From a virus (Duplodnaviria; Heunggongvirae; Uroviricota; Caudoviricetes): a DNA stretch of 13,451 bases. Positions 8,790 through 10,765 of the stretch are shown piece by piece (within the stretch, counting starts at the first letter, position 1; the number at the start of each line of letters is the position of its first letter). Under the pieces are notes generated by a model, which made no database searches, had not been told where the DNA came from, and saw nothing but the letters and a program-made list of their open reading frames with translations. The DNA is taken from the IMG/VR virus record IMGVR_UViG_2698536313_000011. The stretch is one strand, 5' to 3'. The position numbers and the translations under genes were made by a program.

Positions 8790-10463
8790 ATGGGTAAAGG
8801 AAGCAGTAAGGGGCATACCCCGCGCGAAGCGAAGGACAACCTGAAGTCCACGCAGCTGCTGAGTGTGATCGATGCCATCAGCGAAGGGCCGGTTGAAGGT
8901 CCGGTGGATGGATTAAAAAGCGTGCTGCTGAACAGTACGCCGGTGCTGGACAGTGAGGGGAATACCAATATATCCGGCGTCACGGTGGTGTTCCGGGCCG
9001 GTGAGCAGGAGCAGACACCGCCGGAGGGATTTGAATCCTCCGGCTCCGAGACGGTGCTGGGTACGGAAGTGAAGTACGACACGCCGATTACCCGGACCAT
9101 CACGTCGGCAAACATCGACCGTCTGCGCTTTACCTTCGGTGTGCAGGCACTGGTGGAAACCACCTCAAAGGGGGACCGGAATCCGTCGGAAGTCCGCCTG
9201 CTGGTTCAGATACAGCGTAATGGTGGCTGGGTGACGGAAAAAGACATCACCATTAAAGGCAAAACCACCTCACAGTATCTAGCATCGGTGGTGGTGGGTA
9301 ACCTGCCGCCGCGCCCGTTCAATATCCGGATGCGCAGGATGACGCCGGACAGCACCACAGACCAGCTGCAGAACAAAACGCTCTGGTCGTCATACACCGA
9401 AATCATCGATGTGAAACAGTGCTACCCGAACACGGCACTGGTCGGCGTACAGGTGGATTCGGAGCAGTTCGGCAGCCAGCAGGTGAGCCGTAATTATCAT
9501 CTGCGCGGGCGTATTCTGCAGGTGCCGTCGAACTATAACCCGCAGACTCGGCAATACAGCGGTATCTGGGACGGAACGTTTAAGCCAGCATACAGCAATA
9601 ACATGGCCTGGTGTCTGTGGGATATGCTGACCCATCCACGCTACGGCATGGGGAAGCGTCTTGGTGCGGCGGATGTGGACAAATGGGCGCTGTATGTCAT
9701 CGGCCAGTACTGCGACCAGTCAGTGCCGGATGGCTTTGGTGGCACGGAGCCGCGCATCACCTGTAACGCTTACCTGACCACACAGCGTAAGGCGTGGGAT
9801 GTGCTCAGTGATTTCTGTTCGGCGATGCGCTGTATGCCGGTATGGAACGGGCAGACGCTGACGTTCGTGCAGGACCGACCGTCGGATAAGGTGTGGACCT
9901 ATAACCGCAGTAATGTGGTGATGCCGGATGATGGCGCGCCGTTCCGCTACAGCTTCAGCGCCCTGAAGGACCGCCATAATGCCGTTGAGGTGAACTGGAT
10001 TGACCCGGATAACGGCTGGGAGACGGCGACAGAGCTTGTTGAAGATACGCAGGCCATTGCCCGTTACGGTCGTAACGTCACGAAGATGGATGCCTTTGGC
10101 TGTACCAGCCGGGGGCAGGCACACCGCGCCGGGCTGTGGCTGATTAAAACGGAGCTGCTGGAAACGCAGACCGTGGACTTCAGCGTGGGTGCAGAAGGGC
10201 TTCGCCATGTACCGGGCGATGTCATTGAAATCTGTGATGATGACTATGCCGGTATCAGCATCGGCGGGGGGGGGGGGGGGGGGGGGGGGGGGGGGGGGGG
10301 GGGGGGGCGGGGGGGGGGGCGGGGGGGGGGGCGGGGGGGGGGGCGGGGGGGGGGGCGGGGGGGGGGGCGGGGGGGGGGGCGGGGGGGGGGGCGGGGGGGG
10401 GGGCGGGGGGGGGGGCGGGGGGGGGGGCGGGGGGGGGGGCGGGGGACAGCTTCAGCGCCCTGA
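8790..10463 (+). CDS. J: Host specificity / central tail fibre protein J, N-terminal portion (disrupted after nt 10268)
   Basis: [34 protein letters not shown].. closely matches the lambda gpJ N-terminus as recalled. Homology runs to ..[11 protein letters not shown] at about 10268. The as-written ORF then reads through the G-tract (poly-Gly with Arg every 4th codon) and stops at 10463 out of frame. Confidence 0.85.
9949..10268 (+). repeat. Direct repeat copy 1 (320 bp of J coding sequence)
   Basis: Identical to 10446-10765 at a 497-nt offset except one mismatch (A at 10193 vs C at 10690, a synonymous GCA/GCC Ala codon). Compared by hand. Confidence 0.9.
10266..10445. repeat. Anomalous 180-bp G-tract with C at every 12th position (42 G, then 12 units of C+G11, last unit truncated)
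   Basis: Seen directly. C at 10308, 10320, 10332, ... 10440 (period 12), all other bases G. The first 3 G overlap genuine J sequence. Confidence 0.95.
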
Positions 10464-10765
10464 AGGACCGCCATAATGCCGTTGAGGTGAACTGGATTGA
10501 CCCGGATAACGGCTGGGAGACGGCGACAGAGCTTGTTGAAGATACGCAGGCCATTGCCCGTTACGGTCGTAACGTCACGAAGATGGATGCCTTTGGCTGT
10601 ACCAGCCGGGGGCAGGCACACCGCGCCGGGCTGTGGCTGATTAAAACGGAGCTGCTGGAAACGCAGACCGTGGACTTCAGCGTGGGTGCCGAAGGGCTTC
10701 GCCATGTACCGGGCGATGTCATTGAAATCTGTGATGATGACTATGCCGGTATCAGCATCGGCGGG
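10446..10765 (+). repeat. Direct repeat copy 2 (320 bp of J coding sequence)
   Basis: See copy 1. Copy 2 continues seamlessly into the downstream J sequence (..[21 protein letters not shown]..). Confidence 0.9.

Follow-up and report, generated by a model that had tools for sequence, protein, structure and literature searches.

The tail-tip protein gpJ of phage lambda (PDB 8iyk, chain J) and the false or incomplete fills that the scaffolder SSPACE and the gap filler GapFiller can introduce into draft genomes (PMC5320598, PMC3446322) are the closest described counterparts of the two features that meet in the stretch of DNA analysed here. This stretch, the virus record IMGVR_UViG_2698536313_000011 at its full length of 13,451 nt (the window), carries a prophage tail-tip gene J, homologous to lambda gpJ, in which a 320-nt segment is present as two direct copies on either side of a G-rich tract. 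We conclude that the duplication and the tract are, very probably, a scaffold-join and gap-fill artefact in a public draft genome and not biology. The evidence comes from the deposited record, from the same locus in complete Escherichia coli genomes and from the structure of the tract itself.

The bacterial pipeline of the Sanger Institute assembles reads with Velvet, joins contigs across N gaps with SSPACE and then runs 120 iterations of GapFiller with falling thresholds; its platforms are the four-colour HiSeq and MiSeq, its gap filling uses only reads that are not mapped as proper pairs, and its authors note that greedy steps can make false joins (PMC5320598). A read pool of improper pairs is enriched in junk and repeat-derived reads. 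GapFiller cuts the gap reads into 30-mers and extends the gap edges by one nucleotide per step, each step requiring a majority of 0.7 at a depth of 2 or more; k-mers are discarded once used, and the procedure is then repeated with all of them available again (PMC3446322). Closure requires that the two extensions overlap and that the insert lie within 50 nt of the estimate. Its authors point out that a wrong gap estimate can reject correct closures, and they trim 10 nt at the gap edges, where sequence is typically of low quality (PMC3446322).

Gene J as deposited and the unsequenced join

The window reads FI, head-tail joining, Z, U, V, G, T, tape measure, M, L, K, I, a small open reading frame (ORF), J and lom, which is the gene order of a lambdoid tail module, and its L-K-I-(orf)-J-lom segment is syntenic with that of lambda. 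Homology to lambda J, the presence of J domains (Pfam matches to Phage-tail_3, Ig_J, Phage_Tail_Tip and Ig_GpJ_C) and the position between tail gene I and lom together identify the gene as a member of the lambda gpJ family; the 759-aa fragment that represents its C-terminal part in the deposited record aligns to residues 401-836 of lambda J with E=0. The two proteins differ in length, at 1159 aa for the J of the window and 1132 aa for that of lambda, and the C-terminal receptor-binding part is of another type, matching the 'A8 gpJ' chain 9wca_J. The features of the interrupted gene are as follows.

8790..12766, + strand: prophage tail-tip gene J (lambda gpJ homologue) as deposited, with 497 nt of very probable artefact inside; true length almost certainly 3480 nt (1159 aa and stop)
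8790..10463, + strand: spurious 557-aa ORF, the N-terminal part of J running into the tract, with poly-Gly/(GGGR)n at its end; the deposited contig has a gene call for it
9949..10268, + strand: copy 1 of the duplicated J segment, with the A allele at 10193; ends at the native GGCGGG (10263-10268)
10193..10193, + strand: A allele (GCA, Ala) in copy 1, shared with E. coli TB354 and the closest prophages
10269..10445, no strand: spurious filler, 177 nt; no counterpart in any related genome
10297..10445, no strand: perfect period-12 zone inside the filler, 149 nt or 120 overlapping 30-mers
10446..10446, no strand: residual scaffold gap, 'N' in CYFE01000064.1 and 'A' in the supplied window
10446..10765, + strand: copy 2 of the duplicated J segment, with the C allele at 10690; begins the right-hand sequence end
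10487..12766, + strand: spurious 759-aa ORF, the C-terminal part of J with a false GTG start; deposited as CTZ13193.1, 'fibronectin type III [Escherichia coli]'
10690..10690, + strand: C allele (GCC, Ala) in copy 2, the sole right-hand difference from TB354

Positions 9949-10268 and 10446-10765 are direct copies of 320 nt with a single mismatch (A10193 against C10690), which lies at a third codon position and is synonymous. An earlier note on this DNA, made from its letters alone, had described the duplication in these terms, and both its description and its arithmetic are correct. The repeat ends sharply, with no further extension on either side, and is the sole direct-repeat family of 20 nt or more in the window, so that a chance origin is excluded. 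The 177-nt spacer between the copies consists of G and C alone, arranged as 39 Gs, then eleven units of one C followed by eleven Gs, (C G11) x11, then C G5. Counting three native Gs, the first G run measures 42 nt (10266-10307), and from 10297 to 10445 the period of 12 is perfect. Elsewhere in the window there are no homopolymers of 8 nt or longer.

The public record shows what happens at the right-hand edge of the tract. The window is the entire contig CYFE01000064.1 of NCBI assembly GCA_001284065.1, a public draft E. coli assembly. When the record (locus L125 in our numbering) is compared with window positions 487-13451, one difference is found: window position 10446 is 'A', and the record (L125 position 9960) has 'N'. 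The junction in CYFE01000064.1 reads ...CGGGGG-N-CAGCTTCAGC..., and the repeat in the public record accordingly comprises 319 determined bases and one undetermined base. The 'A' supplied at 10446 equals the native base 9949 of copy 1; it made the repeat look one base longer, and it hid the scaffold gap from the reader who wrote the earlier note.

The lone N is the one-base remnant of a scaffold gap. It falls exactly at the left edge of copy 2, and the join was therefore inferred and never sequenced through; the junction carries the very sign of an unsequenced join that an assembly artefact should leave. Two sequence ends that overlap inside J were linked with a gap by the scaffolder and not merged, with one N of that gap left at 10446. 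The earlier note had read the duplication as overlapping ends concatenated instead of merged, and the N at the edge of copy 2 bears this out, as does the fact that collapsing the overlap gives the arrangement found in complete genomes. A single N at the join is a behaviour of SSPACE and GapFiller on which we found nothing useful in the literature.

The same locus in complete genomes

The complete genome used as reference is that of E. coli TB354 (NZ_AP038814.1), from chicken meat in Viet Nam. Window positions 1-10268 map to 908872-919138 of TB354 and positions 10446-13451 map to 918819-921824, so that both copies fall on the same 320 nt of that genome (918819-919138). Over 10,268 aligned columns the left side departs from TB354 by 3 substitutions and a 1-base gap (99.96% identity); the right side, with C10690 as its 1 difference in 3006, is 99.97% identical. 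The collapsed window and the TB354 prophage are thus contiguous and colinear, with the 320-nt segment in single copy, and are 99.96% identical overall. Each half has its unique best match in TB354; the runners-up reach 99.0% overall and 98.3% on the right half. Genome GZ04-0086 has the same colinear 12,954-nt arrangement without the tract, and at least 15 more complete genomes are colinear in this way.

The G-rich tract is absent from TB354 and GZ04-0086, both aligned base by base, and it lies outside both aligned pieces in every complete E. coli genome listed. The overlapping flanks therefore collapse to the layout of finished genomes, as shown by TB354 and GZ04-0086, and the filler has no place in relatives and has the character of junk reads, both of which are properties of an artefact. 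Deletion of 497 nt, keeping either copy, yields one continuous ORF of 1159 aa from 8790, as the earlier note had anticipated; the protein is identical over all 1159 aa to TB354 gpJ (WP_053893783.1). We conclude that J without the artefact is an ordinary, intact member of its family with nothing unusual about it, and that the DNA of the isolate almost certainly holds one intact 3480-nt J, as in TB354. Under the artefact reading the native order would be ...ATCGGCGGG continuing straight into CGCGTGCTGG after 10268.

These comparisons bear directly on whether the structure could be a real mutation, with J inactivated in the isolate by a true tandem duplication of 320 nt and a G-rich insertion of 177 nt. 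The sequence is present in a public record, and cryptic prophages tolerate disrupted tail genes. The junction nevertheless contains an N, the structure is absent from the best-matching complete genomes listed, the tract is found in no related genome, and the G42 run and eleven G11C repeats are unlike the rest of the window. Other occurrences of the motif are confined to the ends of contigs in unrelated assemblies, and the length and phase of the tract follow a k-mer algorithm, as set out below. We know of no mechanism that would make a 320-nt duplication around such filler, and we regard a real mutation as improbable to the point of being negligible.

The same alignments bear on a second proposal of the earlier note, that J may be a chimera in which the join links two lambdoid prophages, one supplying the upstream tail genes and the other the 3' part of J and lom. 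There are grounds for considering it. E. coli genomes hold a median of 2-3 J-like copies, and the contig breaks off in the capsid gene and just after lom, places typical of repeat-induced breaks; breaks there are expected if other lambdoid prophages share those flanks. The single mismatch is, moreover, a common natural allele. Against this, the best matches of the two flanks do not fall in different prophages or genomes: the halves are contiguous in one TB354 prophage, at the identities given above, with TB354 the unique best for each, and the further complete genomes repeat the colinear arrangement. The copies are also identical over 320 nt save for one base, where 1-10 differences are typical of paralogues. 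No more than one base is foreign, and a chimeric J is highly unlikely.

Structure and probable cause of the G-rich filler

The tract has a structure that fits a k-mer algorithm. The 149-nt zone of period 12 contains 120 30-mers, which is exactly 10.0 rounds of a 12-k-mer cycle; a whole number of rounds is obtained only for k = 6 mod 12, and not for k of 21, 31, 55, 77 or 127. The chance of such agreement by coincidence is 1 in 12. In a toy model of greedy 30-mer extension with removal of used k-mers, given as input a junk read with four periods only, 12 nt were added per pass and the last bases produced were (C G11) x11 and then C G5, exactly as observed before the N. The periodic read sequence needed is only about 41 nt, about what other assemblies show at contig ends.

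A greedy k-mer gap filler, for which GapFiller with default 30-mers gives the best fit, would then have extended the edges of the gap left by the scaffolder, GapFiller having perhaps been run after Velvet and SSPACE as in the Sanger Institute bacterial pipeline. Extension would have passed through genuine reads first, making a second copy of about 320 nt that the far side of the gap already contained. Acceptance of the correct closure would have failed, possibly from a mismatch between the insert length and the estimated gap size. Low-complexity junk reads rich in G may then have derailed the left extension at 10263-10268, since the native GGCGGG there allows a G-rich k-mer to take over; the filler would have stepped along a G homopolymer, gone through ten rounds of a 12-node k-mer cycle (G11C) and stopped.

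The likeness to described SSPACE and GapFiller fills lies in the N at the join, the duplication of overlapping flanks and a filler that appears built base by base, as well as in the period-12 zone and its end phase, which fit k=30 when used k-mers are removed. The accession block and annotation style fit the Sanger pipeline, and in the portion of the pipeline's accession list available to us, assemblies such as CYJN01 (PMC5320598) share the accession block of this one. The papers differ from the present case in describing false joins generally and not poly-G fills. On this evidence 30-mer filling of the GapFiller type is the probable specific cause, a claim that we hold less firmly than that of an artefact as such.

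Several points weigh against this account. CYFE01 was found neither in the literature nor in that portion of the Sanger accession list, and the assembly of GCA_001284065.1 by that pipeline is a presumption. The whole-rounds result has the coincidence chance given above and assumes no edge trimming between passes. The first G run, of 42 nt, was not obtained in the toy model, where a start inside the homopolymer only added one G per pass, and the account gives no reason for a C at every 12th base in junk reads. The machines of the pipeline are four-colour, so that the usual 'dark cycle = G' explanation of poly-G may not apply. Finally, the case rests on assembled sequences.

Searches for the period in other assemblies indicate where such sequence is to be found. 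The 37-mer (C G11)x3 C is absent from IMG/VR. Among representative genomes of 185,579 bacterial and archaeal species, one for each, it has one match, in the last 39 nt of a contig of a metagenome-assembled genome made with MEGAHIT at k127, and among Joint Genome Institute (JGI) metagenome contigs it has one match, at positions 3-39 of the contig. Two G11C periods give one match in IMG/VR, also at a contig end, so that the motif is rare. The period of eleven Gs and then a C was thus observed in three contigs from short-read metagenomes or viruses, unrelated to one another and each carrying it at the very end (L002, 6297-6335; L003, 1-40; L124, about 12142-12166). The spacing of 11 Gs is not a general property of poly-G, as it is not enriched among ordinary poly-G tracts.

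This recurrence of the same 12-nt period at contig ends of unrelated assemblies is the ground for another reading, in which the (G11C)n tract would not be algorithmic noise but would stem from a molecule that truly exists and recurs, or from a systematic sequencing artefact not yet described; in its extreme form, the isolate truly carries the insert and the duplication in J. We consider this extremely unlikely.

Plain poly-G is common by comparison. Tracts of at least 36 nt occur at more than 120 loci in IMG/VR (L004-L123), and 108 of the 125 poly-G or poly-C tracts of this length lie within 200 nt of the end of an IMG/VR locus. At contig ends the junction runs from real sequence into poly-G in 50 cases and from poly-G into real sequence in 56. 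At one locus, L030, poly-G directly abuts poly-C.

A familiar source of such sequence is the poly-G tail of two-colour Illumina instruments (NextSeq and NovaSeq), usually explained by the rule 'dark cycle = G'; by the definition taken from the fastp paper (PMC6129281), the data come from a two-channel machine and G runs are confined to the 3' tails of reads. The resemblance is that technical G runs pollute assemblies, with tracts overwhelmingly at contig ends. A HiSeq or MiSeq assembly of the 2015 era would, in contrast, be of four-colour chemistry, and a regular C at every 12th base is no described property of these tails. A simple model of 3' dark-cycle tails does not predict both orientations, since poly-G into real sequence is as frequent as the reverse. 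The two-colour model was accordingly set aside as a sufficient explanation on the orientations of the tracts at contig ends and on the likely four-colour platform.

The closest parallel to the layout itself is IMG/VR locus L087 (9807-10050), in which a 98-nt direct duplication flanks about 50 Gs. As in the window, copy 1 ends at a native G run; copy 2 begins with small errors, either a mismatch or an indel. The differences are a shorter duplication, a plain homopolymer without the period of 12, no N, and another assembler and sample type. We conclude that the order of segment, poly-G and the same segment again is a recurrent product of short-read assembly.

The parallel also lends something to a different origin, a loop in a de Bruijn graph with no scaffolding involved. 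Here a junk poly-G edge would lead from the end of the 320-nt segment back to its start, and an assembler of the SPAdes type would traverse it once, giving X-A-polyG-A-Y. Both junction orientations are common at contig ends, so that a loop can form; the L087 metagenome contig has the same A-polyG-A layout; and at k=127 the periodic zone amounts to about 1.9 rounds, or roughly one traversal. A graph path does not, however, produce an N at the junction, the end phase is exact for k=30 and not for 55, 77 or 127, and the accession block and date point to the Velvet, SSPACE and GapFiller pipeline. Traversal of a SPAdes-type loop was rejected on the N and the k=30 phase, and we judge a graph loop to be very unlikely.

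The A/C difference, the deposited products and neighbouring features

With the join explained as a scaffolding artefact, there is still the origin of the one base by which the copies differ. Copy 1, with A, is matched exactly over its 320 nt by 18 complete E. coli records, TB354 among them, whereas copy 2, with C, has no such match in 5,426 complete E. coli genomes, the best being 99.7%. A 61-mer centred on the C allele is nevertheless found exactly in 906 complete-genome records, against 254 for A, and C is thus a natural variant common among J genes. In E. coli C4 the J gene, which is 95.9% identical overall, is identical to copy 2, with C included, from 9819 to 10746. Paralogue alleles were sampled from genomes other than TB354.

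We lean towards the view that the C was borrowed from a paralogous J copy in another lambdoid prophage of the same genome. The difference would lie in a segment built from a small and biased pool of reads. A plain base-calling or consensus error at C10690, with no paralogue involved, is a serious alternative that we place second: the failure of copy 2 to match exactly over 320 nt favours it, as does the low quality typical of sequence next to scaffold gaps, from which GapFiller trims 10 nt (PMC3446322). The frequency of the C allele with its 30-nt flanks, commoner than A, is harder to reconcile with an error, and J genes such as that of strain C4 match copy 2 through the C over about 430 nt. 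The change is also synonymous, as is usual for natural J polymorphisms, and a random error would give this particular base 1 time in 3. The earlier note had offered non-identical templates or a read error for the mismatch; a paralogous J copy as the template is plausible, the C being a common natural allele, but the two-prophage chimera that it drew from this is unsupported.

In a collection of about 15 billion proteins, the 759-aa product of the split gene is found on a single contig, and the 557-aa N-terminal fragment has no record there. The biological importance of the duplication is nil, J being ordinary and intact once the 497 nt are removed. In practice it matters a little: J is falsely frameshifted in a public GenBank/ENA record, which lists two spurious proteins as a result, and the G-quadruplex-like tract of that record could mislead surveys of repeats, of G-quadruplexes (G4), of pseudogenes or of prophage integrity. 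If the pipeline attribution is right, the same failure could recur wherever greedy 30-mer filling draws on a pool depleted of properly paired reads, and other assemblies of that pipeline could be screened for a low-complexity run, an N and a duplicated flank.

The few differences from TB354 on the left side are of some interest in themselves. They are substitutions at 1114, 2114 and 7612 and an extra T at 5380. The substitutions are non-synonymous, giving L80 where TB354 has I in a Z-like protein, I102 where it has S in the major tail protein, and Q195 where it has R in K; those at 2114 and 7612 also differ from GZ04-0086 and are thus private to the contig studied here. The distance of exactly 1000 nt between 1114 and 2114 is probably a coincidence. 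At 5376-5380 the window has five Ts and TB354 has four (L001, about 8380). The tape-measure gene of TB354 is annotated as 'frameshifted', whereas the corresponding ORF of the window is intact at 857 aa, and the error probably sits in the TB354 assembly.

Between tail genes I and J, at 8385-8723 on the + strand, lies the small ORF of 112 aa. Its G+C content is 35.6%, against about 56% around it, and an AT-rich palindrome occupies 8660-8723 at its 3' end. The N-terminus, MNKTILFCTIIALTGC, resembles a lipoprotein signal with a putative lipobox. The protein matches phrog_914, a family of unknown function (E=1.3e-30), and has no Pfam match; the ORF is conserved in TB354 and GZ04-0086, and it looks like a moron-type insert. 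Further upstream, a GGGAAAG slippery heptamer at 2983-2989, near the end of G (2576-3007) and ahead of T (3034-3447), is a candidate for the -1 programmed frameshift site expected of a lambda-type G/GT pair.

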